This document shows positions 39,252-55,991 of a stretch of 64,000 bases of DNA, one piece after another; position 1 is the first letter of the stretch, and every line of letters starts with the position of its first letter. The DNA is taken from the NCBI GenBank assembly GCA_963667175.2, contig CAXXXF010000002.1:224001-288000 (forward strand), given 5' to 3'. The translations under genes and the position numbers were made by a program. The notes below the pieces were generated by a model. The model worked only from the letters and a program-made list of their open reading frames with translations. It did no database searches and had not been told where the DNA came from. This stretch comes from Candidatus Latescibacterota bacterium (GTDB lineage: Bacteria > Latescibacterota > UBA2968 > GCA-2709665).

Positions 39252-41077
39252 GCGATAAGAAAAAAAAGGCAAGAAGTACGGGGGTGACTTTCCGTTTGAA
39301 CGAGCCGGGCATGGGAGAGCATGAGCGTGTGGGCTTGGCGGGATTGTGCCTGAGCTTGACCGCAGCAATGGCGTGGGAAAAGCAAGGGCGGACATTGCCG
39401 TTGCCCAAGACCGTCGAAAAGAGTCTGGATAGATTGCGCGAGACGATAAGCAATTTGGATGCCCCCAATTTTCCTTTTATGGAAGACGGCTTGGGAATCT
39501 GTCTGGAATGGAGCGAAGGCAACGAAAAAGCCGCACTGGAGGCCGTCGTCAAATGGGCGTGGCAAGTCCATGATGGAGTATTTTTTCTTCCCGGCGTTCA
39601 CCGCAAGCGCGAGCATCTGGATTGCTACCATCTGCGGCTGCATGTCCACAATGGCCTATTGGGGACCTTTTTTCAGTTCCCAAGGACGATCAAGAAGGAG
39701 AAAGACCCTGAGCGGAAAGTCGTGCGCTTCGATGAGGAGAAAACTTTTTCAGTGTCATATCGCCGCATCGCGGCTGATGCAAAATTGCCCCAGCACAATG
39801 CTGTCCCCAAAAAGGGCATTTGTGGTAATGATACAGTAAAGGCAATGTCCTCTTGGATTTATCCGGGATCAGAACCTCGCTTCAACAACAATCCGACAAG
39901 TATTCAACGGGAAACAGGATGGCGCGGTCCAGCACGGTTCGCCTATCTAATGTTGTTCGCACCTATCGCCTGTCACTATATCAAGCTGCCGCGTTCCAGT
40001 GCCGATAATTGGGCATATATGGTTCCAAGCGTGGAGAACCTGCGGGGATATCAGCGCGATTTTATGCGCCGAAACATGGTCAACTTCGGGAACTGGCCTT
40101 TTTACGGCGAGGTCGCCGGGCTAGAGGATGCCACCTTGCGCTATGCGACGAGAAACAATGCGAGTGATCAGTCTGTGACGGTCGTCATGGGGAAAGCCAG
40201 TTTCTACCATGCTCAACAGAAGACTCGGAAAAACCTGTGGCGTGAAATAATCGTCTCTGACGAAATGCCGCCGCCGTTTTGGCGCTATGACATTTTCAAC
40301 CGCGTTTTTCCGGCTGGCAACATGGCCCGGCCGACCCGTAAACCAAAACCCGAAGAAAGCGACCAGAAAGGCAATCATTTCATTACGCTACCGAATTGCC
40401 GAGAGCGGATTACGGCCAATATCCTGCGCGGCAATCCGTGGTACGCTGACTTGGCGTATATTCCGTTCTGGCAGAGTGACCAAGTGGCCGACGAACGCAA
40501 GAGGACCAAAGATTCGATCTCTGCAGAAAGGCTATGGCTCCGCAAACTTCAATTTGAGAGGAAACAGCTTATGTCAATTGCCGACGAGGAAAGGATGTGG
40601 GACGACCCGCACGAAAAGGACATGCTTGAGGCTTTTCGCAGAGCGCTCTGGCGGCTTTGGAATCGGGAAGCTAAAGGTTTGGAAAGGGGTGGAAGCCGGG
40701 ATCTGTCCAAACGCTGGGATAACACGGCGGATAAATGGCACCGCCGACTCCTCCACGCCAAGACTAAGCTGTTGTTGGCCACAGTGGTCCACGAACTGCT
40801 TGCACAGGCAGCGAGAAGCCCCAATCGGAGGGGGGGGGACATAGGCGGCCCCGCATTCTTGCTGCCCAAAACTAGCGAAGATGAGAGCGATGAATCTCGC
40901 CGCGCACGAAACGACGCCTTTCAGGCTGAATTCCGCCGTATGGTGAATCATCCCAGTGACTGGAAGAAGGTTCGCGACTTGGCACTCTTGGCGTTGACGA
41001 CCTTTACAGCCCCGCGCATCGGTAGCGGCAAAGACAATCAATCCACCGAAGGAAACGGAAAGGAAGCCAACCAATGA
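39248..41077 (+). CDS. cas8: Cas8 large subunit (Cmx8/Cas8a1-like)
   Basis: Lies between cas3 and cas7; ERVGLAGL, LFAPIAC, W.KVRDLALLAL motifs. Confidence 0.85.
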   Translation: MSDKKKKARSTGVTFRLNEPGMGEHERVGLAGLCLSLTAAMAWEKQGRTLPLPKTVEKSLDRLRETISNLDAPNFPFMEDGLGICLEWSEGNEKAALEAVVKWAWQVHDGVFFLPGVHRKREHLDCYHLRLHVHNGLLGTFFQFPRTIKKEKDPERKVVRFDEEKTFSVSYRRIAADAKLPQHNAVPKKGICGNDTVKAMSSWIYPGSEPRFNNNPTSIQRETGWRGPARFAYLMLFAPIACHYIKLPRSSADNWAYMVPSVENLRGYQRDFMRRNMVNFGNWPFYGEVAGLEDATLRYATRNNASDQSVTVVMGKASFYHAQQKTRKNLWREIIVSDEMPPPFWRYDIFNRVFPAGNMARPTRKPKPEESDQKGNHFITLPNCRERITANILRGNPWYADLAYIPFWQSDQVADERKRTKDSISAERLWLRKLQFERKQLMSIADEERMWDDPHEKDMLEAFRRALWRLWNREAKGLERGGSRDLSKRWDNTADKWHRRLLHAKTKLLLATVVHELLAQAARSPNRRGGDIGGPAFLLPKTSEDESDESRRARNDAFQAEFRRMVNHPSDWKKVRDLALLALTTFTAPRIGSGKDNQSTEGNGKEANQ

Positions 41078-42003
41078 CGATTCACATATTCGGGATGGCG
41101 CTCACACACGAGGGCACCTTCTCCAACAATCGAGGCGAAAACGAGGGCAATACCAACACCCTCCAGAAAGTCATTCGCAACGGCGACTTGTTCTCCACCG
41201 TCTCGGCAGAGGCAATCCGCTATGCTTTGCGCGATGGCTGGCAGCAAGCTGGCGAAACACTGAACCGAAAGACGCTCGATCATCGCGCTGTCGAATACAC
41301 TGACCGCGAATTTGCTGATGGTAATTGGTCAAATCGTCTTGACGATGATGTTCTTGGATTTATGCACGCAAAGAACGATACTGTCAGCCGGCGCGCGCCA
41401 CTGGAAGTGACTCGCGCCATTTCGGTAACGCCATGGACCGGAGAGACCATTCACAATTTCGCCTCTCCCGGCTCCAATCCGGCGAGACCAGATGACAATG
41501 ACCCAATCCCGTATTCGGTGGAGGTCCACCACACTCGCTATCAGTTCGGATTCGCCTTAACTCCCGATTCTTTGGGTCGGGAAAGGAATGACGCCGATAG
41601 CGCACACGACAATGATGAAAGGATCAGGCGTATTGATGCAACGCTGAATGGCCTCGCTAGCCTGCGGCGAGTCGGCGGCGCACATGCCCGCTATTTCGCC
41701 GACTACTCCCCGGAAATTCTCATCCTTCGCGTAACCACCGATCCCGCGCCGCGTATGCTCTATTGCTTTGAGCAACATGAGGGAAGTGGGAAAATCAGCG
41801 TCTGCGCCCTAAAAAAGAAGCTCGGCAGGGATATCGATCCCAAAGAATTGATTGTTGGCGCGGCAATCGACATCTCTGGGTTGAGTGATTTGGAAAGGGA
41901 CGATGGCGGACAAATCACCGGCGAGAGTCCATGGAATGGCGCAACCTTGACCGACGGTGTGAAAGATGCGGTCAAGAAATGCGTCGAGCGTTTGAAAGGC
42001 TAG
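41074..42003 (+). CDS. cas7: Cas7 (DevR-like)
   Basis: NNRGENEGNTNTLQK, VSAEAIRYALR, DDDVLGFM, HTRYQFGF. Confidence 0.92.
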   Translation: MTIHIFGMALTHEGTFSNNRGENEGNTNTLQKVIRNGDLFSTVSAEAIRYALRDGWQQAGETLNRKTLDHRAVEYTDREFADGNWSNRLDDDVLGFMHAKNDTVSRRAPLEVTRAISVTPWTGETIHNFASPGSNPARPDDNDPIPYSVEVHHTRYQFGFALTPDSLGRERNDADSAHDNDERIRRIDATLNGLASLRRVGGAHARYFADYSPEILILRVTTDPAPRMLYCFEQHEGSGKISVCALKKKLGRDIDPKELIVGAAIDISGLSDLERDDGGQITGESPWNGATLTDGVKDAVKKCVERLKG

Positions 42004-42008
42004 GCACA

Positions 42009-42701
42009 GTGACCGATGTGACTTCGGTGGAAAGCGCTATCCTCGTCCTGCGAGTGGATGTCCCGATGATGGGTCTGCGCCCGATGTGGGCGCGGGAGTA
42101 CCAAGAGACCTACCCCGCGCCGCCGCCCTCTACAATCTACGGCATGTTGCTTTCACTCGTTGGCGTTGAACGCCATAGAAAAGACAGGCACGTCGGTTTA
42201 CGCATTGCGCTCGCCCTAGCCGAAAATACAAAGGAGTCACTTTGGCAAAGGCGAGAAAAGGGGCGCATTTTCCGCAAGTTTCGTCGGGTGGCGCAAGCTA
42301 AGAAAAACGCGGATCCGCTGGCCGACCGTCGTCCAGACTACCAAGAGTTATTGCTTGGCTTGGAGTTCTGGCTGTGGATTGACGACTCGCAGGCGAGTCA
42401 CCCGCTATGCGATGAAATCCGCAAGGCGCTAGACCCTGAAAAGCGCGACGAAATCGTCCGCCACGGCGCACTATGCCTCGGCGAGTCCTCGCACATGGTC
42501 AATGAAGTCACGAAAGATCGCCCACATGGAAAAGGGAGCTTTGTGGCCCCGTGCGAAAAGGGGTTTCTTTCCATGCCGGTCTGGAGCGATTACAAAGAGA
42601 ATCGGCCTACCGTGCTCAATTTCGAGATTCGCGAGCCGGAGGAATTGACTGACAACCCACCCCCCGACTGCTGGATCACCGTTGCTCCGCGTGACGGGTA
42701 A
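42009..42701 (+). CDS. cas5: Cas5 (DevS-like)
   Basis: AREYQETYPAPPPSTIYGMLLSLVG, PDYQELL, LCLGESSHMVN. Confidence 0.92.
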   Translation: MTDVTSVESAILVLRVDVPMMGLRPMWAREYQETYPAPPPSTIYGMLLSLVGVERHRKDRHVGLRIALALAENTKESLWQRREKGRIFRKFRRVAQAKKNADPLADRRPDYQELLLGLEFWLWIDDSQASHPLCDEIRKALDPEKRDEIVRHGALCLGESSHMVNEVTKDRPHGKGSFVAPCEKGFLSMPVWSDYKENRPTVLNFEIREPEELTDNPPPDCWITVAPRDG

Positions 42702-42705
42702 TTCT

Positions 42706-44376
42706 ATGAACGACACTTCCTCCACTTCATCCGCTGACCGTGACGATCATCCGATCATCCGCGTCATGGCGTTACATGCACTCGCTTACTGCGAGCGCCT
42801 TTTCTACCTGGAAGAGATCGAAGAAATCCGCGTTGCCGACCACCGCGTCCACGCCGGGCGCACCCTGCATGACTCCGAAGTAGATAAGAATCGCGAGTGG
42901 CAAAGTCTGGAGCTTTCCAGCGAGGTATGGGGCATTCGCGGCAAGGTGGATTTCGCCCGCTACCGCGACGGGCGACTCGTTGCGGTTGAGCACAAGAAGG
43001 GCCGTTCCAAAGGCGACGACGCTTGGGATAGCGACAAGCTCCAAGTTACCGCTTACGCCGTGCTCCTCTCCGAGCATTTCGGCAGGCCGGTTCCCGAAGG
43101 GCGCGTACGCTATCACGCCAGCAACAAGACGGTGCGCGTGGCCGTGGACGATACGGCCCTTGAGCGGTTGCGGCTCGCCGTGGCCCGTGCGCGGGAATTG
43201 TCGCTTTCCTTGGAACGTCCGCCGGTGACGGACAATGAAAACCTGTGCGCCAAGTGCTCGCTCGCGCCGGTGTGCTTGCCGGAGGAGTCGCGCTTGGCAG
43301 CCGTTGTTGATGCGGCTGACGATACCGCCAGCCTCTCGAAACCGCGACGCCTTTTTCCGAAAGACGACACACGGCGTGTTCTGCATGTGGTGGACCGAGA
43401 CGCGCAGGTCAGGCGTGCTGGTCTACAGTTCGTGGTCCGCAATTCCAAGGGTGAAGAAAGGAAGTTTCCCGGCATGGACGTCGGCGCCGTCATTCTGCAC
43501 GGAAGCGCGCAGATTACCTCTCAGGCCATTCAATTTGCCGCGGCTAACGACATCGCCGTGCACTGGATCAGCGGCGGTGGATGGTACGTCGGAGGCGTCG
43601 CGCCGCCCGCGGGCGCCCAGCGCCGTTTGCGCCAATATCAAGCATTGCAGGAAAGCGATTTGCGGTTGCGCCTCGCCCGTCGCCTGGCGGCGGCCAAAAT
43701 CGAAAACCAATTGCGTTTCATCAGTCGCCAGTCGCGCACTCGAAACGCACGCGATAAGGTAAAGTCCTATCTAAACGCCATGCGCAACGAGCTTCGGGAC
43801 GTGGGTGGTTGCACGGACCCAGGCGCTCTGCGCGGCTGCGAGGGCATTGCGGCCCGCAATTACTTTTCGGCTCTTGCCGAATTGCTGGATCCGGGGGAAG
43901 AGTCCATGGCGTTCTCTGGTCGCAGCCGTCGTCCGCCGCTCGACGGCTTCAACGCCGCACTTTCTTTTGGTTACGGCTTGCTATACAGGGAAGTCATGGC
44001 CGCGATCATTGCGGTCGGGCTGGATTCCACGATCGGGTTTTTTCACGCGGCACGCACCGCGGCCCATCCGCTGGCGCTGGATGTAATGGAGCTGTTTCGC
44101 ACGACGCTGTGGGACATGCCTCTGGTGGCGTCCGTCAACAGACGGCAATGGACCGAGGAGCATCTCGCGGTGAGCAAGAAGCAAGTGTGGCTTTCCGATG
44201 AGGGCAAGCGTTTGGCCGTACGTCTCTTTGAGCAACGAAAGCAGGAATCCTGGAAACACCCTGTGTTACAATATTCCCTGAGTTATGCTCGTGCCATTGA
44301 ACTGGAGGCGCGGCTTTTGGAAAAGGAATGGAATGGCGAGGAAGGGCTGTTTGCCCGTATGCGCCTGCGAGGATGA
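42706..44376 (+). CDS. cas1: Cas4-Cas1 fusion
   Basis: YCERLFYLE, GKVD, EHKKG, C..CSL..VCLP (Cas4); EG.AA..YF, RRPP.D..NA.LSFGY, LALDVMELFR (Cas1). Confidence 0.95.
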   Translation: MNDTSSTSSADRDDHPIIRVMALHALAYCERLFYLEEIEEIRVADHRVHAGRTLHDSEVDKNREWQSLELSSEVWGIRGKVDFARYRDGRLVAVEHKKGRSKGDDAWDSDKLQVTAYAVLLSEHFGRPVPEGRVRYHASNKTVRVAVDDTALERLRLAVARARELSLSLERPPVTDNENLCAKCSLAPVCLPEESRLAAVVDAADDTASLSKPRRLFPKDDTRRVLHVVDRDAQVRRAGLQFVVRNSKGEERKFPGMDVGAVILHGSAQITSQAIQFAAANDIAVHWISGGGWYVGGVAPPAGAQRRLRQYQALQESDLRLRLARRLAAAKIENQLRFISRQSRTRNARDKVKSYLNAMRNELRDVGGCTDPGALRGCEGIAARNYFSALAELLDPGEESMAFSGRSRRPPLDGFNAALSFGYGLLYREVMAAIIAVGLDSTIGFFHAARTAAHPLALDVMELFRTTLWDMPLVASVNRRQWTEEHLAVSKKQVWLSDEGKRLAVRLFEQRKQESWKHPVLQYSLSYARAIELEARLLEKEWNGEEGLFARMRLRG

Positions 44377-44657
44377 GCGAACGACACTGGTATCTCTTCA
44401 GTTACGATATCCGCGAACCCAAACGGTGGCGTCGTGTGCACAAGATTGTAAACGGATATGGGGAGCGGTTGCAGTATTCGGTATACCGATGTCACTTGAC
44501 GCGGGCACAGATGGAACAGGCGAGGCATGAGCTGGAGAAGGTGATGGGGGAAGACGACGACCTACTTGTGATTCGACTCTCCCATCGCTGCAAGATCGTC
44601 GAGCGGACCGAAAGCAGAACGTGGACGGAGCCGCCGCCCAGGTTCGATATCCTTTAG
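44373..44657 (+). CDS. cas2: Cas2
   Basis: YLFSYDIREPKRWR, GERLQYSVY. Confidence 0.95.
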   Translation: MSERHWYLFSYDIREPKRWRRVHKIVNGYGERLQYSVYRCHLTRAQMEQARHELEKVMGEDDDLLVIRLSHRCKIVERTESRTWTEPPPRFDIL

Positions 44658-44908
44658 TGTGCTTACTGGACGACAAGCACGTAAGGATGGACAAGAAGCC
44701 AATCGCGAGTAGCTCTGATATCACCCGTAATTTCAGTATGTTAGACAGGAAAACTCTACGATGAGATACTTGTCGCTTGTAAGTACCGAAAATATCACGA
44801 TTTATCTTGCAGGGAGGTCTAACGACATCGGAACGCAGGACATATACAGGGTAGTGCAGGACATGTCGGCGCATTTGTCCCTTAGAAACAATCAGTTACA
44901 CGGGTACT
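44658..44908 (+). promoter_or_regulatory. CRISPR leader
   Basis: AT-richer non-coding stretch between cas2 and the first repeat. Confidence 0.7.
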
Positions 44909-46961
44909 ACGCAGAAATCTTTGATGCCGAAAGGCGTTGAGCACTTCGAATGAGAATGACTCCACACGAAAAGATCATGAACGCAGAAATCTTTGATGCC
45001 GAAAGGCGTTGAGCACAAAGAAACATCGAAGACGTCCAGGCAAATGACCTTGACGCAGAAATCTTTGATGCCGAAAGGCGTTGAGCACGGGAATGTCATT
45101 GTGGATCGGCAGTGGTTGGTGTATACGCAGAAATCTTTGATGCCGAAAGGCGTTGAGCACTCGATCGGTTCGCCGTCGATCCAGATCCGGCGCGCCAGAC
45201 GCAGAAATCTTTGATGCCGAAAGGCGTTGAGCACCCGTTGCCTGTTCCACTGCGCTCCCCTTTCGCTGCCTACGCAGAAATCTTTGATGCCGAAAGGCGT
45301 TGAGCACCGCTCAGGAAGTCGATTGGCAACGTCGTAGAAGCACGCAGAAATCTTTGATGCCGAAAGGCGTTGAGCACAAGAACATCCAGTCCGCGTATCA
45401 GCACGATACATACGCAGAAATCTTTGATGCCGAAAGGCGTTGAGCACTTGCGCCTCTGCTGGTCCAGCCGCTGGCTCGTGAAGCACGCAGAAATCTTTGA
45501 TGCCGAAAGGCGTTGAGCACCTGGTTGCGCGTTCGCGGATCACACGCCAGGCCCGCCGACGCAGAAATCTTTGATGCCGAAAGGCGTTGAGCACATGGGA
45601 GTGGGCAAGAGGACAGCCCACCCCCATCACACGCAGAAATCTTTGATGCCGAAAGGCGTTGAGCACATACCGAGGGCATTCGCCGCTTCTCTTCCTGCGA
45701 GGTTACGCAGAAATCTTTGATGCCGAAAGGCGTTGAGCACAAGACATCTGGAATTTGAGCGGATTGACGCGGGCGACGCAGAAATCTTTGATGCCGAAAG
45801 GCGTTGAGCACTATCAGACGACGGCCGGCTCGAACACCTTTCCGAACGACGCAGAAATCTTTGATGCCGAAAGGCGTTGAGCACAGGAAAAATCAAATGT
45901 CTTTGTAATGAATGGTGGATACGCAGAAATCTTTGATGCCGAAAGGCGTTGAGCACTATCAGGAATTCAAGGAGCGATTTCTTGTCAATCAACGCAGAAA
46001 TCTTTGATGCCGAAAGGCGTTGAGCACAATGATGCAACACCCGGCGCAACAGGGGGAAGTTGCAAACGCAGAAATCTTTGATGCCGAAAGGCGTTGAGCA
46101 CATCATGGTTGTTCCCCTTGTATGTGTTTGTTGCGCTACGCAGAAATCTTTGATGCCGAAAGGCGTTGAGCACGCTTTAGCTGATGGTTCCCGTAGATGG
46201 GTAGAGATTGACGCAGAAATCTTTGATGCCGAAAGGCGTTGAGCACTCCGATTGCCAGTAGACAATCGACGGCGTTTCGATAACGCAGAAATCTTTGATG
46301 CCGAAAGGCGTTGAGCACTCACAATCGCGGCTGCCGGCGAATCGATCGGCTCGACGCAGAAATCTTTGATGCCGAAAGGCGTTGAGCACGTTAAGAGTTC
46401 GCGGAAAGCCTGCTTGGCCGCCACGCAGAAATCTTTGATGCCGAAAGGCGTTGAGCACCCGCGATCAACCTGGAAAACCGGCTGCGGGTCGACGCAGAAA
46501 TCTTTGATGCCGAAAGGCGTTGAGCACTTAGTTGTGTGGCAAGGGAATAAGCCCAAGCCCGAACGCAGAAATCTTTGATGCCGAAAGGCGTTGAGCACAT
46601 TGATTGCGAATTTCCACTTGATGCCCGCATCTTCGACGCAGAAATCTTTGATGCCGAAAGGCGTTGAGCACGTAAACAGCCTGGAAGATCATCCAGAATC
46701 AATACACTACGCAGAAATCTTTGATGCCGAAAGGCGTTGAGCACTCCGATTGCCAGTAGACAATCGACGGCGTTTCGATAACGCAGAAATCTTTGATGCC
46801 GAAAGGCGTTGAGCACGACCGCCCGCAGTTGCAGGACGGTGTCGCGCAGATCGACGCAGAAATCTTTGATGCCGAAAGGCGTTGAGCACAACCCACATCG
46901 CACACCATCTGTGCCTTTGTTGCCGACGCAGAAATCTTTGATGCCGAAAGGCGTTGAGCAC
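44909..46961 (+). CRISPR. CRISPR array, 29 repeats (ACGCAGAAATCTTTGATGCCGAAAGGCGTTGAGCAC, 36 nt) and 28 spacers of 33-38 nt
   Basis: Counted by eye; hairpin GCC-GAAA-GGC; orientation from the leader side and 3' GTTGAGCAC end. Confidence 0.97.
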
Positions 46962-46998
46962 CCAATGACCATGGCTTGTTCGATAGTGGGGTGAAATC

Positions 46999-47562
46999 TT
47001 GACGCAAAAGGAAATCATCGCACGTCGCCCAAGGCTCAAAGTTCCGGATGAATTTCAGGATGAATGGGTGACTTTGGCCGACGTCGGGTTCGACGGGGAG
47101 TGGGTATCGCCGATTCAGAAGAAATCGAACAGCAGGAAAGGTCCGGTACTCGTAGCGAAACACTGGTTCGATGCGGAATCCGTGAATCTGAATCGAAAAG
47201 TCCTCGAGTGCTTCGGGTATCTGCCCGGCAATCCGTTCAACCGCGCACTTGACCGGGTTCTTGCGTCTGTCGGTCTTGAGCGTGGGGACGTCTACATCAC
47301 GCAGGCGTGCCACTTCCTGCCGAAGAACGACAAGCGGAAGAGAGTGCCGTCCAAATTGATGAAGCTTTCCGTGGAGACGGTGACCCGCCATGAAGTTGAG
47401 GGTCGGCGGGTGATCGCCTTGGGTGGCGAGGCACAGATGGCCTTGACGCGTGCCAATATTGGCTTCCTGCCGTGCCCGCATCCGAGTTCATCGGTCGCTG
47501 GACGATTCGAGGAATTGGCAGAAGCGCTTCGCGATTCGGCGCCGTTCGTCAGCGCCAGTTAG
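46999..47562 (+). CDS. Uracil-DNA glycosylase superfamily-like protein (paralogue of 52777-53316)
   Basis: VYITQA.HF, VIALGGEA, CPHPS motifs. Confidence 0.65.
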   Translation: MTQKEIIARRPRLKVPDEFQDEWVTLADVGFDGEWVSPIQKKSNSRKGPVLVAKHWFDAESVNLNRKVLECFGYLPGNPFNRALDRVLASVGLERGDVYITQACHFLPKNDKRKRVPSKLMKLSVETVTRHEVEGRRVIALGGEAQMALTRANIGFLPCPHPSSSVAGRFEELAEALRDSAPFVSAS

Positions 47563-47564
47563 TG

Positions 47565-47777
47565 ATCTCCCCTCGCTTCGGCGGCCTGCCTGCGCAGCGG
47601 TGTGCGCTGCAGGCAGGGGGGAGCGGATTGAAACCTCTCCCCGATCCCGTCCTACGGATGCCGGTTGTCGTATCTCCCCTCGCTTCGGCGGCGGGAGCGG
47701 ATTGAAACTTGTGTGAGATGTCCTCAGGACAGTCGAGGCAGGATCTCCCCTCGCTACGGCGGGGGGAGCGGAATTCC
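47565..47777 (+). CRISPR. Degenerate mini-array of a second repeat family (ATCTCCCCTCGCTTCGGCGGnGGAGCGGATTGAAAC): 3 repeats, 2 spacers
   Basis: Repeats at 47565-47634 (interrupted), 47672-47708 and 47743-about 47777; spacers 37 and 34 nt. Confidence 0.8.
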
Positions 47778-47804
47778 TTTAAAGGAACAAGAGGGAGTCA
47801 ACAC

Positions 47805-48740
47805 ATTAGGCGAATCGTACTCAGCCGCAAGGGATTCGACTCGAGCCGCAAGGGATTGGAATCGCCGAACGGCGGCGTGCCCAGTCCCATTTTCCCGGAC
47901 GGTCGAATCCTTTCCTTGCCTATTCCGACTCCCAGGCGCTATCCTCAATCTTCGAAACGGTTTGACGACATTGTGTGGGATGGTAGATCGCTATCTCCGC
48001 TCGTGGAGAGTCTTAGTAAAGTTAGAGGTGAGTGTTGGTGCCACTTGGATCCGGATATTCGAGCAGATGCGATCCAACGGCAACCTGGATGGCGGCCGGC
48101 GTTCGGACAGGTTGATGGATCTCAATCCCAATTGGCCAATCAGGAAGTCTCTCAGGGCGACCTGTTCCTGTTTTTTGGTACATTCCGGCGTGTCGAAGAT
48201 GATGGCAGTGGAGGTTGGCGTTACGTCAGAACCGCACCGAAAGTCCATATGCTTTTTGGCTGGTTACAAGTGCAGGAGGTTTTGTCGTTTCGTACTAATG
48301 CCGACTACGACCGGGCACTTTGCAAGTATCCGTGGCTGTCGGACCACCCACATCTCCACAGATCATTTACGGAACGTGCCCACAGTCTTCGCAAGCTTCC
48401 GAACAACACCGTCTACCTGTCGAACCCGAAGCTCAATATACGGGGAATAGACCTACCGGGAGGTGGCGTATTTCAGAGTGAACACGGCCGTATCGTATTG
48501 ACTGATCCAGAGGAGGTTGGAAAAGGAGCACCCTGTCGGCCTTCGTACTGGAGGCTGCCCGAGTGGTTCTGGCCGGACAGCGATTATCGCCGGTTACGAC
48601 GCAAAGTCATGTTGCGGCGGCGCGACACGGAGTGGATCCATGTCGCCTCGGGAGGTAGGGGACAGGAGTTCGTAGTTGACGTACACGACGTCTCAGATGC
48701 CGCAAACAAGTGGGTGCGCAATCTGTTCGAAGATGCTTGA
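47805..48740 (+). CDS. Nmad3 (nucleotide modification-associated domain 3)-like protein; expected ATG reads AGG at 47808
   Basis: IVLSRKGFDS...GGVPSPIFPDG..LSLPIP, CHLDPD, FGQ, GDLFLFFG.F, HPH, GQEFV. Confidence 0.75.
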   Translation: MRRIVLSRKGFDSSRKGLESPNGGVPSPIFPDGRILSLPIPTPRRYPQSSKRFDDIVWDGRSLSPLVESLSKVRGECWCHLDPDIRADAIQRQPGWRPAFGQVDGSQSQLANQEVSQGDLFLFFGTFRRVEDDGSGGWRYVRTAPKVHMLFGWLQVQEVLSFRTNADYDRALCKYPWLSDHPHLHRSFTERAHSLRKLPNNTVYLSNPKLNIRGIDLPGGGVFQSEHGRIVLTDPEEVGKGAPCRPSYWRLPEWFWPDSDYRRLRRKVMLRRRDTEWIHVASGGRGQEFVVDVHDVSDAANKWVRNLFEDA

Positions 48741-48767
48741 GCGGCACCAAGAGTCCGAGAGGTCGCG

Positions 48768-48803
48768 GCGCAGAAATCTTTGATGCCGAAAGGCGTTGAG
48801 CAC
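48768..48803 (+). CRISPR. Solitary repeat of the main array family (35/36 identical)
   Basis: gcgcagaaatctttgatgccgaaaggcgttgagcac, 27 bp after the Nmad3 stop. Confidence 0.92.
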
Positions 48804-49182
48804 GTGATAAAAGAGGCGAGTTGCGATTCTTGGCGATGCAGGCGTCTGGAATTTGAGGGATTGTAGTGGGTGATAGATCGTCTTTCCTGTGGAGTTTACC
48901 GTTCAATAAGAATCAGTCGATCCACGCAATGCAGTCTTAGTGATAAGGGGGGAGCCAATGTCGACACACAAGCTGGAGATCGTACAGGTACTGGAAAAGT
49001 ATCCTGACGGGGCGCTGGTCGAGGAGTTGATGAAAGAAAGGCGGCGGATAAGGAAGTCCGAGACCGGATTGACGCTGCTCGCGTTTTTGCCCGCCAGTGG
49101 GACATCGTACGGGTAGACCATTGTACTTTTCAACTGATGCTGTGAATTGGCAGGTGCGTCACCGTTAGGTAACCATGCACAG

Positions 49183-49286
49183 GTATTGTGCCCACTAAGG
49201 AGCGGTTTGAAATATCAAAACTCCAATGCAGGTGTTCAGTGACCCGTGGGAAATCGAGAATCTTCCATCAGAACAAGGATTGAAAA
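49183..49286 (+). CRISPR. Hybrid repeat-spacer-repeat unit
   Basis: ...taaggagcggtttgaaat, 36 nt, then gaaatcgagaatcttccatcagaacaaggattgaaaa. Confidence 0.65.
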
Positions 49287-49503
49287 TACCCGTGGACAGG
49301 GTCTATTGATTCACTACAGAAGGCTTAGAAAGTACGAACGGTCTGGTTCCTGACGACGCTTTATGCTTAAAGTGCGGAGCAATCGGTTACGGTCAGTGCA
49401 CATGCCCTACACCGGCCCATTGCTGCGACTGAACGGCTCCAGGGGATCTACATTGCACCTGTGCCGTAGGACAGGGACCCGTGTGGTCAGACGAGGAGTA
49501 AAT

Positions 49504-50094
49504 ATGCTGATTTTAATTCTGCTCTCCGTGGGCTTAGCCCAGGCGGAGCTGCCAGAAGGTTTTTCTACCTGGGACTTGTCGATCAAAAAGGATCCCATCG
49601 AAGAAACGACAACTATACGGCTGACCCTGCATGGTGAGGCATTGGTGTATGTTAAGGGTCAGCGATATGGTAGAGAGTATGATCATTTTGGGGCGATCTC
49701 CTTTAGTTGTCATTTGTCCAGATATGCAAGCACAGTAGAAATGGGTGTATTGACCCATAAATCGTTCATATATGGTGTAGAGGAAGGGGACGCGGTGGAG
49801 CCAGCGTTCATGATTATGCGATATGATAGTAAAACGCCGAAGAAGATATTCGGATGGAAAACGACAAGGGTGAAAGGTCGGGATCTGCTTCTACCACCTG
49901 AGGGATTTATGAACGCATTCGTAGATACATTACGTAAAGGCGGACATTATGAATTGTTGTTAAGATCGGAATCGCCGTTTACTGGTAAGCGATGGACAAT
50001 GAAATTTAACGTCACTCACAGTAGACGAAACGTGATGAACTTTCTTAGAAAGTGTAAGGCTCACCGGAGGGATGATCACGGCTACAACTACTGA
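49504..50094 (+). CDS. Secreted hypothetical protein
   Basis: GAGGAG RBS, signal peptide ending AQA, lower GC than the core genes. Confidence 0.65.
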   Translation: MLILILLSVGLAQAELPEGFSTWDLSIKKDPIEETTTIRLTLHGEALVYVKGQRYGREYDHFGAISFSCHLSRYASTVEMGVLTHKSFIYGVEEGDAVEPAFMIMRYDSKTPKKIFGWKTTRVKGRDLLLPPEGFMNAFVDTLRKGGHYELLLRSESPFTGKRWTMKFNVTHSRRNVMNFLRKCKAHRRDDHGYNY

Positions 50095-50188
50095 GCATTT
50101 GAATAGCGCCATATTTCTTCCTGCTCAAGCAGTTGAAGATATAGAGAAGGATGATTGGTATCGCGGACACCTGCGAACGCGCACGTAA

Positions 50189-50225
50189 CCCGTTGAGAAT
50201 CTTCCATCGGAACAAGGGTAGAAAC
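50189..50225 (+). CRISPR. Solitary degenerate repeat, CTTCCATCAGAACAAGGATTGA family
   Basis: cccgttgagaatcttccatcggaacaagggtagaaac. Confidence 0.65.
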
Positions 50226-50280
50226 TTGCCCAAACCAGAAAACGGGCGACAAAGTAGCTGATGGGGCTCTCTACTTAGAT

Positions 50281-50598
50281 TTGGACGGTGGAGAATTAGG
50301 CAAAACGGTCTTGTCCGTCGAAGGCGGAAACATCCGACCGTCGGATTTACAAGACCTGCAAGGGGTGTTACATTCCGATCCAGATGCCCGCCTTTCCGGT
50401 TTCCTTTCGTTGAATGAACCCACAAAGGCAATGGGAAAGGCTGTCAGTTCAGATGGACAATGGAGTTACAAGGGCGAGACCTACGACAAAATTCAGTTGC
50501 TCACCGTTCGTGACGTGGTCGACGGGAAGCGGTTGTTCCAGACGCCTACCAGCCTGAAATACAAGGATTACCACTTGCAGGAAACGATCCGGTTTTAG
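50281..50598 (+). pseudogene. Fragment of an Mrr-like restriction endonuclease domain, of the kind fused C-terminally to DNA methyltransferases
   Basis: SV.GG.IRP.D..DL.GVL...GFLSL..PT..M...Y.KIQLLTV; N-terminus absent. Confidence 0.55.
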
Positions 50599-50990
50599 AT
50601 CTCCAATTCGGGAAGAAGACATATGCGACCGAATCTCGCGCAGGTCAAGTCGTTTATTCTATCCGAGTTTCCTGAGTTACTGCCAGATGGCCATTGAAGA
50701 CGGATGGTCTTTTTTCTATAAAGAGATAAGAAAAGGACGCGACTCCACCCGAATCGCCCGCGTCAAGCAGGCGAGCTCAAACAGTAAAATAGATTTCAAA
50801 CCTGCTGTTACTGCCAGAATAACGGGAGATGAACGATTGAGGGTTGAGATAACAACTGACTGGGAGAACGAGATTCGCAACGTAACCGAACGGGAGTTGG
50901 AACTTTGGGAGTGCCATTTCGGGAAACAGGATTGGCAATTTTAAACCCAAAACGCACCAGCCCGTCTCTTAATTTCGTCCTGCGCGCGTG

Positions 50991-51092
50991 ATTTCCCCTC
51001 GCTTCGGCGGGGCACGAGGGATTGAAGCTAGTCCACGGGGGCGATCCGTAAGGGTATCGGGTCGCCCCCTACGTGGTGCGTGGGCTGAAAAA
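50991..51092 (+). CRISPR. Hybrid unit: family-2 repeat, 32-nt spacer, type I-C-like repeat
   Basis: atttcccctcgcttcggcggggcacgagggattgaagc (50991-51028); gtcgccccctacgtggtgcgtgggctgaaa (51061-51090). Confidence 0.65.
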
Positions 51093-51153
51093 GCGCCGCC
51101 ACGCTTATTTACAGGTAACCCGTTTCCACTCCATACTTCGACAAGGAGGTCCG

Positions 51154-51741
51154 ATGGACACGAGTGAATTGTACGAATTTAGCCAGGGTCTGGAGTCGCT
51201 GATCCGAAAACCGACCGATCTGCGACCCTTCGTATGTGAGGGTTCGCCTCTTGCATGTGATGCGTTCCTCGTGGGTATCAATCCCGCGAGCGAAATGTCG
51301 GATGACTTCTGGGATTTCTGGTCGGACAGTTATGGATTCGACAAGAGCGCGTGGTTTGAGAAGTACAAGGAGGAGCGAAGAACTCGCCCGCTGAAACTCG
51401 GAAGGAAGAGAAGGAATGAAGTAAGCAACACACGCAGAATCATCGAGGAGGTCGTTTTGGGCGCCAATCCCGTCAAATGTCTTGAGACGAACATATACGC
51501 GAAAGCGACGAAACAGGCATCGGACCTGGACGAGCAAAACAGAATCACGGCGCCCTTCGACTATCTCTTGCGCGAGATAGCGCCGAAGTTGGTGATTGCC
51601 CACGGCAAGGACGCTGCCGAGTACCTGCAAGCGCAGGACCTACCGTGCAAACTCAGGTGTGTCAAACATTTCCGACTCTGGTCCAAGCAGAACGCGCGAG
51701 ATCTAGGGTTGAGTATTCGCAGGTATTGTGAGGGAGAGTAG
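51154..51741 (+). CDS. Uracil-DNA glycosylase superfamily-like protein
   Basis: FLVGINPA, ETNIY, PKLVIAHGK, KHF; AAGGAGG RBS. Confidence 0.65.
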   Translation: MDTSELYEFSQGLESLIRKPTDLRPFVCEGSPLACDAFLVGINPASEMSDDFWDFWSDSYGFDKSAWFEKYKEERRTRPLKLGRKRRNEVSNTRRIIEEVVLGANPVKCLETNIYAKATKQASDLDEQNRITAPFDYLLREIAPKLVIAHGKDAAEYLQAQDLPCKLRCVKHFRLWSKQNARDLGLSIRRYCEGE

Positions 51742-51887
51742 CGGGACCGCGCGTGAAAACCCGCCTCGGGTTCACAGCCCATTCGCTTCGCCGGTTGACG
51801 TCCAAAGTCGCTAGGCGAGCCACGCCCGCTGAGATTCCTGCATAAGTAACGAGGTTTGACCGGAACGAAGGATGAAGGGGTCTATGG

Positions 51888-52751
51888 ATGATCAAGATAG
51901 TCAGTTGGAACATCGACAACCGAATGCAGCCGTGGTGCGAACTGGTGCGGATGGCGCAGGACGGCGAGGCCGACCTGGCGCTCCTGCAGGAAGCGGGTGG
52001 CCCGCCAGGCGACCTTGTACATCTGGTCGAATACGATGATGCGGTGTTTTGGAACCGCCAACTTTACGACCGATGGCCACTGGTCGTGAAGTTGTCCGAT
52101 CGAATAGCAGTCGAACATTACCGACAGGTGCCGCCGATCAGCGAACTTGGTATGAGCGACATTGGCGTGAGCGGTATCGGGACCATCGCCGCCGCGAGGG
52201 TGATCCCTTACGAAAGTGAAGATGAGGCCTTCGTCGCTGTCTCCATGTACGCGCGCTGGCTGAAGCCGCATCCGTCTACGGATAGCCCATGGAAAGTCGG
52301 TTACTCGGATGCGTCGGCACATCGAGTTATTTCGGACCTATCGGCTTTCATCGGTCACACCAACCCGTCCAGACACAGGATTCTGGCGGCAGGCGACCTG
52401 AACATGTTTTACGGGGCAACCGGCACGAGACTGTCACTGCCGGAACGTGAGCGCACGGTCTGGGATCGAATGAAATCGCTCGGACTGGAATTTTTGGGAC
52501 CGCAGGTTCCTTGCGGACGACCCGCACCGACTGCGCCGGACGACGTACCTTGCGATACGAAGAATGTACCGACGTACTACAAGGTTGGAGAATGCCCGGA
52601 AAAGGCGACGAATCAATTGGACTACGCATTTGCGTCGCACGGCTTCCACGAAAGGGTTTCAGTACGGGCGATGAACGAGATTTGCGAATGGGGATGCAGC
52701 GACCACTGCAGGCTGATCATTGAGGTAAAGACGAACGCCGATAGCGCCTGA
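51888..52751 (+). CDS. Endonuclease/exonuclease/phosphatase (EEP) family protein
   Basis: IVSWNI, LLQEA, AGDLN, LDYAFAS, SDH. Confidence 0.88.
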   Translation: MIKIVSWNIDNRMQPWCELVRMAQDGEADLALLQEAGGPPGDLVHLVEYDDAVFWNRQLYDRWPLVVKLSDRIAVEHYRQVPPISELGMSDIGVSGIGTIAAARVIPYESEDEAFVAVSMYARWLKPHPSTDSPWKVGYSDASAHRVISDLSAFIGHTNPSRHRILAAGDLNMFYGATGTRLSLPERERTVWDRMKSLGLEFLGPQVPCGRPAPTAPDDVPCDTKNVPTYYKVGECPEKATNQLDYAFASHGFHERVSVRAMNEICEWGCSDHCRLIIEVKTNADSA

Positions 52752-52776
52752 CAGAGTTGCGCCACGAGGTGAAACC

Positions 52777-53316
52777 ATGGAACGAGAGGACATAATCGAA
52801 CGTCGCCGAAGCCTTCAAGTTCCGGACGAATTTCAGGATGAATGGATGACATTAGCCGACGTCGGGTTCGACGGTGAGTGGGTATCGCCAATTCAGAAGA
52901 TATCGAACAGCATGAGGGGTCCGGTACTCGTAGCAAAGCACTGGCTCGACGCCGAATCCGTGGATCTGAATCGGGAAGTCCTCGAATGCTTGGGATATTT
53001 GCCTGGCAACCGATTCAATCAGTCTCTTAATCGGGCCCTGGCAAATGTCGGGAAAGCACGTGGGGACGTCTACATTACACAGGCGTGCCACTTCCTACCG
53101 AAGGACGACAAGCGGAAGCGAGTGCCGGCCGAATTGATGAAACTTTCCGTGAAGGAGGTGACCCGCTATGAAGTTGAGGGTCGAAGGGTCATTGCGTTGG
53201 GTGGTGAGGCTCAGTTGGCCCTGGAGCGTTTCGGTATTGATTTTCTGCCGTGCGCGCATCCGAGTTCATCGGTCACTGGACGATTCGAGGAATTGGCAGA
53301 TGCGATTCGAGATTAG
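52777..53316 (+). CDS. UDG superfamily-like protein (paralogue of 46999-47562)
   Basis: Highly similar translation; VIALGGEA, CAHPS. Confidence 0.65.
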   Translation: MEREDIIERRRSLQVPDEFQDEWMTLADVGFDGEWVSPIQKISNSMRGPVLVAKHWLDAESVDLNREVLECLGYLPGNRFNQSLNRALANVGKARGDVYITQACHFLPKDDKRKRVPAELMKLSVKEVTRYEVEGRRVIALGGEAQLALERFGIDFLPCAHPSSSVTGRFEELADAIRD

Positions 53317-53341
53317 GCGCCGTTCGTGGGCTCTATCCCAA

Positions 53342-53451
53342 ATCTCCTCTCGCTTCAGCGGTGGGAACGGATTGAAACGCGTCGCGCCGCTCGCAGATGG
53401 AGTGGATGGCGGCGCCCAGCGAGAGCCTTCCATCAGAACAAGGATTGAGAC
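53342..53451 (+). CRISPR. Three abutting repeats of different families
   Basis: 53342-53378 family 2; 53381-53408 I-C-like gtcgcgccgctcgcagatggagtggat; 53415-53451 cccagcgagagccttccatcagaacaaggattgagac. Confidence 0.7.
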
Positions 53452-53456
53452 TGCTT

Positions 53457-53633
53457 ATGCCGCAAGATATCCGAAATCGACAGGAACCGGCCGCCTTCCA
53501 GGTCTGGCATCCGGATGGGACGCCCTTTTCCGATGATGACTATCGAAAGGCCGGAATGCCTGTACCAACCCCCGAGCAGATCGCTCACTGGGCTGAGATG
53601 GACCGAAGTTTCGCCGATCCGGATACTGACTGA
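53457..53633 (+). CDS. Small hypothetical protein (WHPDGTP domain)
   Basis: Conserved paralogue at 55643-55837 and a fused copy at about 57105-57200. Confidence 0.6.
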   Translation: MPQDIRNRQEPAAFQVWHPDGTPFSDDDYRKAGMPVPTPEQIAHWAEMDRSFADPDTD

Positions 53634-53653
53634 GGCTTGATCGGATACATCCG

Positions 53654-53689
53654 CCCAGAGAAATCGTCCATCAAAGAATGGATTGAAGC
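53654..53689 (+). CRISPR. Solitary degenerate repeat overlapping the methyltransferase start
   Basis: cccagagaaatcgtccatcaaagaatggattgaagc aligns with 53415-53451. Confidence 0.55.
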
Positions 53690-54522
53690 TGCCCAACGGG
53701 CTGCGTCCGGACGGAGGACCTGAACTTGTGACTGGCGCCAACTACGACACTCCCTGGTGGCCGCTTATATACGACCAGTGGAACGAGCGGGGCGATAGGC
53801 AGCAGACGCACCAGCGCGAGTTCCAATTCTACAGCATGCAGCTCACCGGAGAGGCGGGTCCGATCCTCGAAACGGCTTGCGGCACTGGTTCGATTCTGCT
53901 TCGCCTTTGGCGCCACGGCGTTGACATAAGGGGTTTCGATTGCGCCGCAGGGATGCTGGCCGTTCTGCGGCGCAAGGCAGCGGCTCTGGGGCTGGGCGAT
54001 ATCGACCGCCGCGTTGGCTGTCAAGACCTCGTTGACTTCTGCTACGACCAGTCCTTTGCAGCCATTCTGATTCCGGCCAGTTCGTTCATGCTCTTACCCA
54101 CACAGTCGGCCCAAATCACCTGTCTCGAACGCATTCGCGCGCATATGGCACCTGGCGGGCGGCTACTGATGAATTTCTACATCCCGTCGCTTGCCGACGA
54201 CCTGCTTGCCCACATCGCCCCGTCCCCGTCGCTGGAAACATTCGGCGAATTCATCCACCCCCAAACAGGCCGCCAAATCAGCGTCCGCTTCAAAAAGATC
54301 GTCGATCTGGGCGAGCAGACTGAGCACTACGAGTGGTTTTTTCTCTACGACGGAGAAACTGCAGCCGTGCCCATGACTGCGCGGTGGATCTACAAAGAAG
54401 AATTTCAGCTATTGCTGCGTCTGGCAGGATTTAGCCGCTGGCGGCTTTCTGGCACCCACGACGGCCAGCCGTACACAGGTTCAAAGGAGATTGGGACGAC
54501 GTACTGGGTCGTCGAACGCTGA
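53683..54522 (+). CDS. Class I SAM-dependent methyltransferase
   Basis: ILETACGTG, GFD...ML, HMAPGGRL. Confidence 0.85.
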   Translation: MKLPNGLRPDGGPELVTGANYDTPWWPLIYDQWNERGDRQQTHQREFQFYSMQLTGEAGPILETACGTGSILLRLWRHGVDIRGFDCAAGMLAVLRRKAAALGLGDIDRRVGCQDLVDFCYDQSFAAILIPASSFMLLPTQSAQITCLERIRAHMAPGGRLLMNFYIPSLADDLLAHIAPSPSLETFGEFIHPQTGRQISVRFKKIVDLGEQTEHYEWFFLYDGETAAVPMTARWIYKEEFQLLLRLAGFSRWRLSGTHDGQPYTGSKEIGTTYWVVER

Positions 54523-54851
54523 GCGGATCAGTACCTGCAAACGGTGGTGACCGTTTGGTAAGCTGGTTAGGGTCTGCCAGCACCGTTGGTTGAAAGACGA
54601 TAGGTATTGTTCGCTACTGCATCAGGGGATACTTCAAGGCGATTCAGTTCGCCACGGCGAGACACAATCGACTGGGTTCCCTGCCTGGCCAATGCGTGAT
54701 GGCGACCCGCCGGAAATCTGGTTTCAGCTGGACAAAGGACGACCTCTCCAACATGATCGACAAGACTTTGAAGTGGGACGTGGATTGAAGCTGCTGCGGG
54801 GTTTATCCCAGGGGACGGACTGTATCACGCGACACAGGAGGAGATGACCCA

Positions 54852-55538
54852 ATGTGCGGTCGATTTACCCAGATGATGTCCTGGGGTGAGCTCCATTGGC
54901 TTTACAGCCTGTCCGAACACTCGGAATCGCTGGAGTTGCAATCCCGCTATAACGGCGCGCCGACCCAGGATTTCGCGGTCTGCCGCCTGGACGGAAACGG
55001 CAACCGGGAGATCGACAGGCTGCAATGGGGTCTGGTACCCGCGTGGTCCAAAGACGTCAGAATCGGCGCCCGCATGATCAACGCACGGGCCGAAAGCGTA
55101 CACGAGAAACCGGCATTCGGCGCCGCCTTTCGGGCGCGCCGGTGCCTGGTGCCGGCCGACGGGTGGTTCGAGTGGCAAGCAGCAGGGAGCGCCAGACAGC
55201 CCTACTTCCTGGCGCTCGCGGACGGGTCGACGCTGTCGTTCGCCGCGCTGTGGGAACGCTGGGATAGAGGCGGCGCCGCCCTGGAGTCATTTACCATCAT
55301 CACCACGGCCGCCGACGAAGCGCTTTCCAACGTCTACCATCGCCAGCCTGCCGTCATCAATCCCGAACACTTCTCCGTCTGGCTCGACAACGAATCATCC
55401 GCGGCGACGTTGCTGGATCTGGTTCGCTATCCTCGCGCGGGACCGTACGAAATACGCGCCATCGGCGCTCGCGTAAACAATGTCCGAAACGACGATCCGG
55501 ACGTTCTCCTGCCCACGTCCCAGCAGCGCCTGTTCTAA
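54852..55538 (+). CDS. SRAP (YedK/HMCES) abasic-site-protecting autopeptidase
   Basis: N-terminal MCGRF, YN.APTQ, INARAES, RCLVPADGWFEW, HRQP.I. Confidence 0.93.
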   Translation: MCGRFTQMMSWGELHWLYSLSEHSESLELQSRYNGAPTQDFAVCRLDGNGNREIDRLQWGLVPAWSKDVRIGARMINARAESVHEKPAFGAAFRARRCLVPADGWFEWQAAGSARQPYFLALADGSTLSFAALWERWDRGGAALESFTIITTAADEALSNVYHRQPAVINPEHFSVWLDNESSAATLLDLVRYPRAGPYEIRAIGARVNNVRNDDPDVLLPTSQQRLF

Positions 55539-55544
55539 GTCCAC

Positions 55545-55637
55545 ACGGGAGAGCGGATTGAAACGACAAAACACCAGTGCCGGTGGTCAGTGACCCGTGG
55601 CCCAGTGAGAGTCTTCCATCAGAAAAAGGATTGAGAC
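55545..55637 (+). CRISPR. Hybrid repeat-spacer-repeat unit (paralogue of 49183-49286)
   Basis: acgggagagcggattgaaac, 36 nt, then cccagtgagagtcttccatcagaaaaaggattgagac. Confidence 0.7.
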
Positions 55638-55642
55638 TGCCT

Positions 55643-55837
55643 ATGCCGCAAGATATCAGAAATCGCCAGGAGCCCGCCGCCTTCCAGTGCTGGCATCCGG
55701 ACGGTACCCCTTACTCGCCGGCAGACTATCGAAAGGCCGGGATGCCTGTCCCGACCCCCGAGCAGATCGCCCACTGGGCTGAGATGGACCGAATATTCGC
55801 CGATCCGGTGAGAATTGTCAATCAGAACAAGAAGTGA
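55643..55837 (+). CDS. Small hypothetical protein (WHPDGTP domain), second copy
   Basis: MPQDIRNRQEPAAFQCWHPDGTP...DYRKAGMPVPTPEQIAHW. Confidence 0.6.
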   Translation: MPQDIRNRQEPAAFQCWHPDGTPYSPADYRKAGMPVPTPEQIAHWAEMDRIFADPVRIVNQNKK

Positions 55838-55876
55838 AACAGCGAATCCGTCCCAATCCTCGCCTGGACGATCGAT

Positions 55877-55912
55877 GTCTCCCCTCGCTTCGGCCGGGGA
55901 GCGGATTGAAAC
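55877..55912 (+). CRISPR. Solitary family-2 repeat
   Basis: gtctcccctcgcttcggccggggagcggattgaaac. Confidence 0.8.
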
Positions 55913-55991
55913 GTCGCCGCAATGTCCCCGCGCCCTTGTGAAAAGGCGAAGTCGACGGGGCGGTACGTGGCGCCAATGGAGGTGAATAACA

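Follow-up and report, generated by a model that had tools for sequence, protein, structure and literature searches.

CRISPR arrays can be interrupted by insertion sequences or other DNA, and among the genomes compared here G002 provides an example. Short repeats also stand between coding units in integron cassette arrays, whose attC sites are imperfect palindromes of the form RYYYAAC ... GTTRRRY, and in synthetic constructs in which Cas6/Csy4 sites were engineered between cistrons. We analysed a stretch of 64,000 nucleotides (nt) from Candidatus Latescibacterota bacterium (hereafter the window; positions 224,001 to 288,000 of the forward strand of contig CAXXXF010000002.1, assembly GCA_963667175.2), in which a type I-MYXAN CRISPR array is followed by two genes and then by one more repeat of the same type. 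The genes, a UDG-like gene (UDGa) and an Nmad3-family gene (Nmad3a), are separated by a small array of foreign CRISPR repeats. With moderate confidence, and from comparison of sequences, we interpret this arrangement as a two-gene insertion in front of the ancestral terminal repeat and as the opening unit of a hypervariable island that extends from the array's trailer side. In this interpretation the unit was built by recombination, is probably transcribed from the array and would be released by Cas6.

The locus resembles interrupted arrays in having kilobases of non-spacer DNA between two repeats of one array. It differs from them in that two constrained cellular-type genes and a foreign mini-array lie exactly before the terminal repeat. 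The insert contains no transposase, terminal inverted repeats or target duplication, its only genes being those for UDG and Nmad3, and a transposon or insertion-sequence insertion was rejected on these grounds. As in integrons, short, seemingly promoterless cassettes of variable content lie on one strand, are separated by short repeats and have a single promoter region upstream. An integron was likewise rejected: the contig encodes no IntI-type recombinase, the cassette junctions are imprecise, and the separators are CRISPR repeats ending in GGATTGAAAC or GTTGAGCAC, without attC architecture. The likeness to engineered Cas6/Csy4 sites, a Cas6 site parting coding units on one transcript, is the one proposed in an earlier examination of the same DNA (the sequence-only reading); those sites are synthetic, whereas the present ones would be natural. 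Shmakov et al. (2023; PMC10120712), in the parts that concern ectopic repeats near cas loci, ascribe them to recombinogenic repeats with dynamic gain and loss, and describe a pipeline that searches intergenic DNA for further copies of the repeat of the locus itself, at spacer lengths of 15–60 bp. The present repeats are also ectopic and close to cas loci; compared with the elements in those parts, they mostly belong to other subtypes and bracket protein genes, and the spacers of the mini-array have no partial match in the genome. The RNA anti-CRISPRs of Camara-Wilpert et al. (2023; PMC10651486) are, as characterized in the sections relevant here, solitary repeat units of phages and plasmids. 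In both cases CRISPR repeats stand alone outside arrays, frequently next to small genes, but the locus here is chromosomal, syntenic among relatives, situated behind host arrays and without hallmarks of mobile elements. Interrupted arrays and ectopic repeats are thus already known, and what is unusual here is the conserved setting. In the open-access main texts searched, we found no report of genes as spacers, of Nmad3 near CRISPR or of natural Cas6-coupled expression. The elements of the locus, from the cas operon to the trailer, are as follows.

36238–44657, plus strand: type I-MYXAN cas operon (cas6/cmx6, cas3, cas8a1/cmx1, cas7/devR, cas5/devS, a cas4-cas1 fusion and cas2), from NCBIfam and Pfam matches above curated cut-offs
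44658–44908, plus strand: leader of 251 nt, assigned from its location after cas2 and before the first repeat
44909–46961, plus strand: CRISPR array of 29 type A repeats of 36 nt with 28 spacers
46962–46986, plus strand: 25 unique nt at the left junction, single copy in the genome, with UDG-type homology beginning later
46999–47562, plus strand: UDGa, UDG-like gene of 187 amino acids (aa) with a TTG start (Pfam UDG, PF03167, 7.7e-9, 36.2 bits, cut-off 24.3)
47565–47634, plus strand: repeat B1, type I-C-like, split by a palindrome of 31 nt (47586–47616) resembling repetitive extragenic palindromes (REP)
47635–47775, plus strand: rest of the foreign mini-array (spacer, repeat B2 at 47672–47708, spacer, repeat B3' at 47743–47775 with a degenerate 3' end)
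47805–48740, plus strand: Nmad3a, 311 aa (Pfam Nmad3, PF18754, 5.3e-57, 193.7 bits, profile positions 1–247 of 247)
48741–48772, plus strand: 3' flank of Nmad3a and right junction, the final 5 nt (GCGCA) common with the start of the repeat
48768–48803, plus strand: repeat 30, identical to type A at 35 of 36 positions, with G for A at base 1
48804–49200, plus strand: conserved trailer, consisting of the 3' end left from a gene still complete in the congener G012 and then orf58, from alignment to the G012 trailer

The I-MYXAN operon is complete in the window, and its Cas6/Cmx6 scores 193 bits against an NCBIfam cut-off of 98.85. The type A repeat (ACGCAG...GAGCAC) is identical in all 29 array copies, which follow each other with a period of 69–74 nt. 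The 28 spacers between them measure 33–38 nt; the 29th interval, up to repeat 30, measures 1806 nt (46962–48767). Allowing up to three mismatches, we found 30 copies of the repeat in the 5.52-Mb genome, all on the plus strand, and none with a reversed-pattern control, indicating that the distant repeat 30 is not a chance match. By sequence and strand it belongs to the I-MYXAN array. The anatomy first described in the sequence-only reading was thereby recovered in both of its parts: an undegenerate repeat 29 with a 35/36 copy at 48768–48803, for which we find 29 identical repeats and a difference at base 1 only, and, according to Pfam and repeat searches, a UDG-like gene 37 bp past repeat 29, a foreign mini-array and an Nmad3 gene ending 27 bp before repeat 30. 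The array has a sub-threshold match to the Rfam family CRISPR-DR33 on the plus strand; Rfam searches over 44000–59000 gave sub-threshold CRISPR-DR families and no other RNA family. Spacer 19 (46247–46282) is identical to spacer 26 (46745–46780), and 127 nt around them are 93% alike, which shows internal duplication of a repeat-spacer unit, that is, recombination within the array.

The origin of the insertion can be traced by comparison with G012. Among 22 genomes of the family, the type A repeat is found only in this genome and in G012, where all 27 copies are regularly spaced. Base 1 of the repeat is G in each of these 27 copies and A in all 29 array repeats here; repeat 30 is the only copy in this genome that has G. 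The DNA past the terminal repeat of G012 aligns with window positions 48822–49190, except for a 214-aa gene of which the window has the 3' end only. Trailer orthology and the state of base 1 therefore identify repeat 30 and the trailer as the ancestral end of the array, and since UDGa and Nmad3a precede this terminal repeat, the insertion took place at the trailer end. In G012 the Nmad3a ortholog (79% nucleotide identity) is not part of the array: it is located further on, downstream of orf58. The proposal that the genes had been inserted at the trailer end of the array is thus supported by the regular spacing in G012, the orthologous trailer and the Nmad3 ortholog outside the array.

The same reading had likened the two genes to a giant spacer. 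Taken literally, this would mean that Cas4-Cas1-Cas2 integrated a 1.8-kb fragment and duplicated the repeat, as the full-length repeats on both sides and the intact integrase genes would allow. We regard such an origin as highly improbable. The interval is about 50 times as long as the other 28 spacers, it lies at the trailer end and not at the leader end, and its flanking repeats differ at base 1, the distal copy having the ancestral state and the trailer. Moreover, the insert is a mosaic of parts found at separate places in this genome and in G012, so that there is no contiguous protospacer. Because a leader-end site, a fresh identical repeat and a contiguous source are all missing, capture by Cas1-Cas2 is disfavoured. 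The layout of a giant spacer stands, but both the junctions and the mosaic composition speak for recombination.

Judged from its sequence relationships, the insert is a mosaic of modules. The segment 46990–47584, comprising UDGa and the start of the B repeat, is 82% identical to 52768–53361, where the paralog UDGb also precedes a B repeat. The three UDGa-type genes become homologous only some 12 nt upstream of their start codons, which leaves the 25 nt after repeat 29 with no relation to the cassette; these nucleotides (46962–46986) are probably the remnant of the last ordinary spacer. At the other end, the 3' flanks of Nmad3a in G012, G013, G002 and G016 are homologous to the window up to ...GGTCGCGGCGCA and then diverge, where the window continues as repeat. 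Since the homology ends at GCGCA, which is common to the repeat, the join lies within those five bases. A 6195-nt contig from a public run, belonging to a relative with about 93% identity, has the same order of Nmad3a, repeat and orf58 and spans the equivalent of 47974–49194; public runs that match small shares of the stretch represent relatives and not this strain. The occurrence of the right junction in another lineage indicates that it is older than this strain. Roughly 2.4 kb of additional DNA separates two B repeats in the same contig, indicating that the B repeats themselves are sites of gain and loss. We read the unit as built by illegitimate or microhomology joins and by exchange between repeats, in a repeat-rich and recombination-prone region, rather than by Cas1-Cas2 capture.

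We then examined the two genes of the insert. UDGa starts 37 nt past repeat 29 and has its own ribosome-binding site; its TTG aligns with the ATG and GTG starts of relatives, and the HPS motif is retained. It scored far below the cut-offs of the NCBIfam family-4 and UdgX models, and we accordingly assign no UDG subfamily. The likely start of Nmad3a is an ATT at 47805 after the ribosome-binding site AAGAGGGAG; the corresponding codon in G012 is GTG, and the frame is also open from a TTG at 47709. Its stop codon lies 27 nt before repeat 30, and orthologs share 70–76% aa identity. The ratios of nonsynonymous to synonymous substitution rates (dN/dS) against paralogs and orthologs are 0.25–0.27 for UDGa and 0.22–0.24 for Nmad3a; both genes are intact and under purifying selection. 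Between them, repeat B1 and the palindrome can form a hairpin of -37 kcal/mol. The REP-like palindrome (CTGCCTGC...GCAGGCAG) has 112 copies in the genome, and its insertion site in the B repeat is the same in the window and in G015, a member of another genus. The mini-array spacers have no match in the genome except for one duplicated spacer-plus-repeat unit (blastn-short, E <= 0.05, a search that would miss matches under 16 nt). A crRNA-like regulatory mini-array of the CreA or crlRNA type, in which a spacer would be partly complementary to a promoter of cas or cargo genes, was rejected, as no partial spacer match to the genome was found with blastn-short.

The earlier two-gene unit holds, but its membership in a much larger island of genes and repeats had been missed. 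From 46999 to 58277 (about 11 kb), some 15 open reading frames (ORFs), all on the plus strand, are interleaved with stray repeats of three CRISPR subtypes, which we call A, B and C. Beyond the trailer, the island contains the following elements.

49250–58277, plus strand: rest of the cassette island
within 49250–58277, after orf58, plus strand: orf243, orf105 and orf85
51154–51741, plus strand: UDG-like gene of a second type
51888–52751, plus strand: EEP-family nuclease
52777–53316, plus strand: UDGb
53457–53635, plus strand: PQD, 58 aa
53683–54522, plus strand: S-adenosylmethionine (SAM) methyltransferase
54852–55538, plus strand: SRAP protein
55643–55837, plus strand: PQD, second copy
55992–57257, plus strand: orf421, PDC-S11-like nuclease of 421 aa
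57405–58277, plus strand: Nmad3b
3' ends at 49286 (C), 51028 (B-like), 53378 (B), 53451 (C) and 53689 (C-like), plus strand: stray repeats
3' ends at 54791, 55564 (partial B), 55637 (C) and 55912 (B), plus strand: further stray repeats

All stray B and C repeats end in GGATTGA(A/G)(A/G)C. The island has a GC content of 0.48–0.62, mostly under the contig means of 0.575–0.62. Gene families of the same kinds occur on the trailer sides of the relatives' arrays, again with stray repeats between them. In G015, an EEP gene starts 27 nt downstream of the final repeat in a type I-B array, and about 215 nt separate its stop codon from another C repeat. In G011, a PQD ORF starts 13 nt downstream of the final repeat in a B array of 20 repeats and has a perfect C repeat behind it, and a 76-repeat C array has a broken PQD between its last repeat and one further C repeat. 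The order UDGa, C repeat, Nmad3b, B repeat in G015 mirrors the order UDGa, B repeats, Nmad3a, A repeat in the window. As far as the compared sequences go, an array followed by one or more genes and then by one more repeat is a recurrent arrangement in the family.

The B and C repeats can be traced to other CRISPR-Cas subtypes of the relatives. B arrays of 13 to 110 repeats lie there beside type I-C cas genes, and C arrays of 23 to 76 repeats beside type I-B cas genes. The genome studied here has no B or C array; its cas genes are of types I-MYXAN and I-G only, with two Cas1 genes. The second system, type I-G (contig C13:48240–64000), comprises 18 copies of a fourth repeat type, which ends in ATTGAAGC, and a trailer without cassette genes. 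All 15 genomes of the genus have an ortholog of a window gene at 25451–27172. This ortholog shares a contig with arrays, PQD or Nmad3 in 12 of the 14 congeners, at a distance of 7–26 kb, the other two assemblies being too fragmented to judge. Its synteny with the island markers indicates one chromosomal hot spot of CRISPR-Cas subtype exchange. Within the window, the segment 42682–44657 compares with G012 as follows: Cas4-Cas1 is 90% and Cas2 95% identical and the repeat is shared, whereas the effector genes are only 21–39% identical. A near-identical adaptation module beside diverged effectors indicates module shuffling within one locus. Most simply, then, the B and C repeats here would be relics of earlier occupants of the hot spot. 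Even if the stray repeats have no function, the locus records CRISPR turnover at one site, with types I-MYXAN, I-B, I-C and I-G within a genus: adaptation modules are exchanged between effector modules, and repeats of the subtypes of sister species remain as scars between cassettes.

The solitary repeats, lying beside small acidic ORFs such as PQD and belonging to subtypes of sister species, might also be RNA decoys comparable to RNA anti-CRISPRs (Racr-like), with the small genes as anti-defence cargo of an integrated mobile element; the GC content under the genome mean would agree with this. We consider an anti-CRISPR island of this kind distinctly improbable. Synteny of the locus extends over 12 of 14 congeners, and in relatives the same repeats are found directly behind their own arrays. 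No tyrosine recombinase is encoded on the contig (Pfam PF00589 matches only on C15, C6 and C12), and neither UDGa nor Nmad3a has a homolog in 50,697 phage records.

PQD is a small unnamed family of 58-aa ORFs with the motif WHPDGTP..DY.KAG.PVPTPEQ.AHWAE, represented by 13 clusters in a large protein collection and, in the window, by units at 53415–53689 and 55601–55840. It is present in 12 of the 14 congeners, in one of seven genomes from the four remaining genera of the family and in none of 31 genomes of the sister family. Of 35 non-redundant copies, a C or B repeat ends 2–8 nt (mostly 4–5) before the ATG in 25, and a C-like repeat lies at or just past the stop codon in 23. G009, G010 and G014 contain tandem PQD runs that resemble arrays with ORFs as spacers. 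In 198 divergent pairs among 22 units, the 25-nt repeat core before the ORF is 82.6% identical, the 5' part of the repeat 58.6% and the next 25 nt upstream 28.4%. This drop indicates that the PQD unit begins exactly at the repeat and that the repeat is conserved together with the ORF. The dN/dS of PQD is 0.10–0.32, and its structure model is moderate (pLDDT 72). The last ~60 residues of orf421 form a PQD-like domain, and the stop codon of this gene lies within a degenerate C repeat. The conservation of the repeat next to PQD is the strongest hint in these sequences that some stray repeats may be more than scars. The family, found almost only as a 'spacer' between CRISPR repeats, is a candidate for follow-up.

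If the stray repeats are functional, the island might be a punctuated operon, in which repeats are kept for Cas6-type cutting of mRNA or in which Cas proteins bound to repeats control translation. Besides the PQD upstream regions, three observations agree with this. All 482 matches to A, B or C repeat cores in ten further loci and the one studied here (11 loci in total) are on the strand of the genes or arrays, and none is on the opposite strand; genes start 2–37 nt past repeats; and a second genus (G015) has the same succession of UDG, repeat, Nmad3 and repeat, though its repeats are of other types. Against it, no cas genes matching the B and C repeats are present in the genome, cassette junctions are imprecise, many stray repeats are degenerate, and the conservation beside PQD may partly come from tandem duplication or gene conversion. 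All in all, we think a functional operon of this kind unlikely. Were it to exist, a leader-driven transcript would extend through the gene-bearing part of the array, and Cas6-type enzymes would cut out each mRNA. PQD would then be a protein-coding 'spacer': a cut 8 nt before the end of the repeat would part AAGGA, the only Shine-Dalgarno-like motif, which lies inside the repeat, from the start codon, so that translation of PQD would report whether CRISPR RNA (crRNA) processing works. This elaboration, with CRISPR repeats as the punctuation of an extended array, is to be taken as a tentative idea with the odds against it; if true, it would mean that natural Cas6-processed mRNAs exist and that ORFs are used as spacers.

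For the UDGa-Nmad3a insert itself, a scan with promoter and terminator consensus sequences listed nothing in the 37-nt gap before UDGa. Over 44300–58500 it gave 11 promoter-like sites, compared with 7.8 ± 2.9 in shuffled sequences, and 16 terminator-like sites, compared with 14.0 ± 4.3, so that neither count exceeds the shuffled level; the leader has one promoter-like site at 44742–44770, from the consensus scan only and not above chance. As the gap is too short for a promoter and shows no terminator, UDGa and Nmad3a are most likely read as an extension of the precursor crRNA. Repeats 29 and 30 have the same predicted hairpin of 8–9 bp, and since both flanking repeats are intact, Cas6/Cmx6 would cut the bicistronic RNA from the crRNAs. 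In this scheme, the leader-driven precursor would run into UDGa-Nmad3a, and cuts at repeats 29 and 30 would free an RNA of about 1.85 kb with crRNA-like ends. Transcription from the leader and release by Cas6 thus fit the anatomy of the locus. If this anatomy reflects function, expression of defence-type genes other than cas would be wired to the transcription and processing of the array.

Several observations weigh against this interpretation or parts of it. The left junction (46961/46962) has no independent bridging contig, and in an assembly of 18 contigs a chimeric join is possible. We nevertheless give very little credence to a misassembly in which two repeat-bearing regions were joined at repeat 29, given that the join is not at the edge of the repeat but past 25 unique nt, that the right junction is present in independent contigs of relatives and that the layout recurs in the complete single-contig genomes G015 and G011. 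The 25 nt at the left junction could belong to a captured fragment and not to a spacer remnant, although a Cas1-Cas2 origin is disfavoured. There are also signs of decay: the ATT start of Nmad3a as compared with GTG in G012, the 3' part of UDGa (47536–47562), which runs about 8 codons beyond the stop of its paralog, and orf58 (49030–49060), which is frameshifted by 4 nt relative to the 72-aa ORF of G012. The hairpin of B1 and the palindrome between the genes might stop or attenuate transcription and, together with the ATT start, may limit expression. The consensus used in the promoter scan does not cover the promoter types of this phylum. Finally, the view of the stray repeats as relics leaves unexplained why the repeat before PQD stays conserved.

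We also considered what UDGa and Nmad3a might do. They are probably a pair that acts in defence or senses DNA modification, judging from the genes around them and in the related islands: glycosylase-like, AP-endonuclease-like EEP, SRAP, GmrSD-like and PDC-S11-like proteins. The gene that follows Nmad3a in G012 encodes a GmrSD-type restriction domain. PADLOC assigned orf421 to the candidate defence family PDC-S11 (1.5e-29), and this protein has a weak NucS-like nuclease match; PADLOC gave weak matches for the methyltransferase and the SRAP protein and none for UDGa, Nmad3a, EEP or PQD. The parts of the DefensePredictor paper (PMC13092281) that list domain labels of validated or predicted defence systems include the labels NMAD and UDG. 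The UDG-like/Nmad3 pair is a candidate defence module. Neither UDGa nor the Nmad3 profile had a sequence relative among solved structures. The Nmad3a model (pLDDT 90.3) gave nothing at E <= 0.001 in a Foldseek search of the PDB, and weak partial PUA- or EVE-like matches (probability ~0.2) were not used. The Nmad3 family has 1797 clusters of relatives. A metagenome scan with UDGa returned one distant relative with 30% identity, and a scan of genome contigs with Nmad3a returned one locus, the same as that of G016.

Some minor features surround these genes. Further Nmad3 copies or fragments in the window are a whole gene at 57405–58277, a C-terminal remnant at 61919–62173 and a copy at 63634–64000 that runs off the window, with small toxin-antitoxin-like genes on the minus strand between them. 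A second small site on another contig (C3:320290–320951) has a C repeat adjoining an Nmad3 fragment. Just upstream of cas6, two identical tandem IS110-family transposase genes (32805–34145 and 34455–35795, minus strand) are found, with at least nine copies in the genome; IS110 as a shuttle for cassettes was dropped, since the sister islands examined contain no IS110 relatives. A search for Nmad2 in this genome gave no match, a result of little weight as the search control also had no match. The nearest plasmid homolog of Nmad3a, on the Burkholderia plasmid NZ_CP053612.1, overlaps an Nmad2 gene and has a metallophosphoesterase and an HD-domain protein as neighbours; its partner thus differs from the UDG-like partner in the window.

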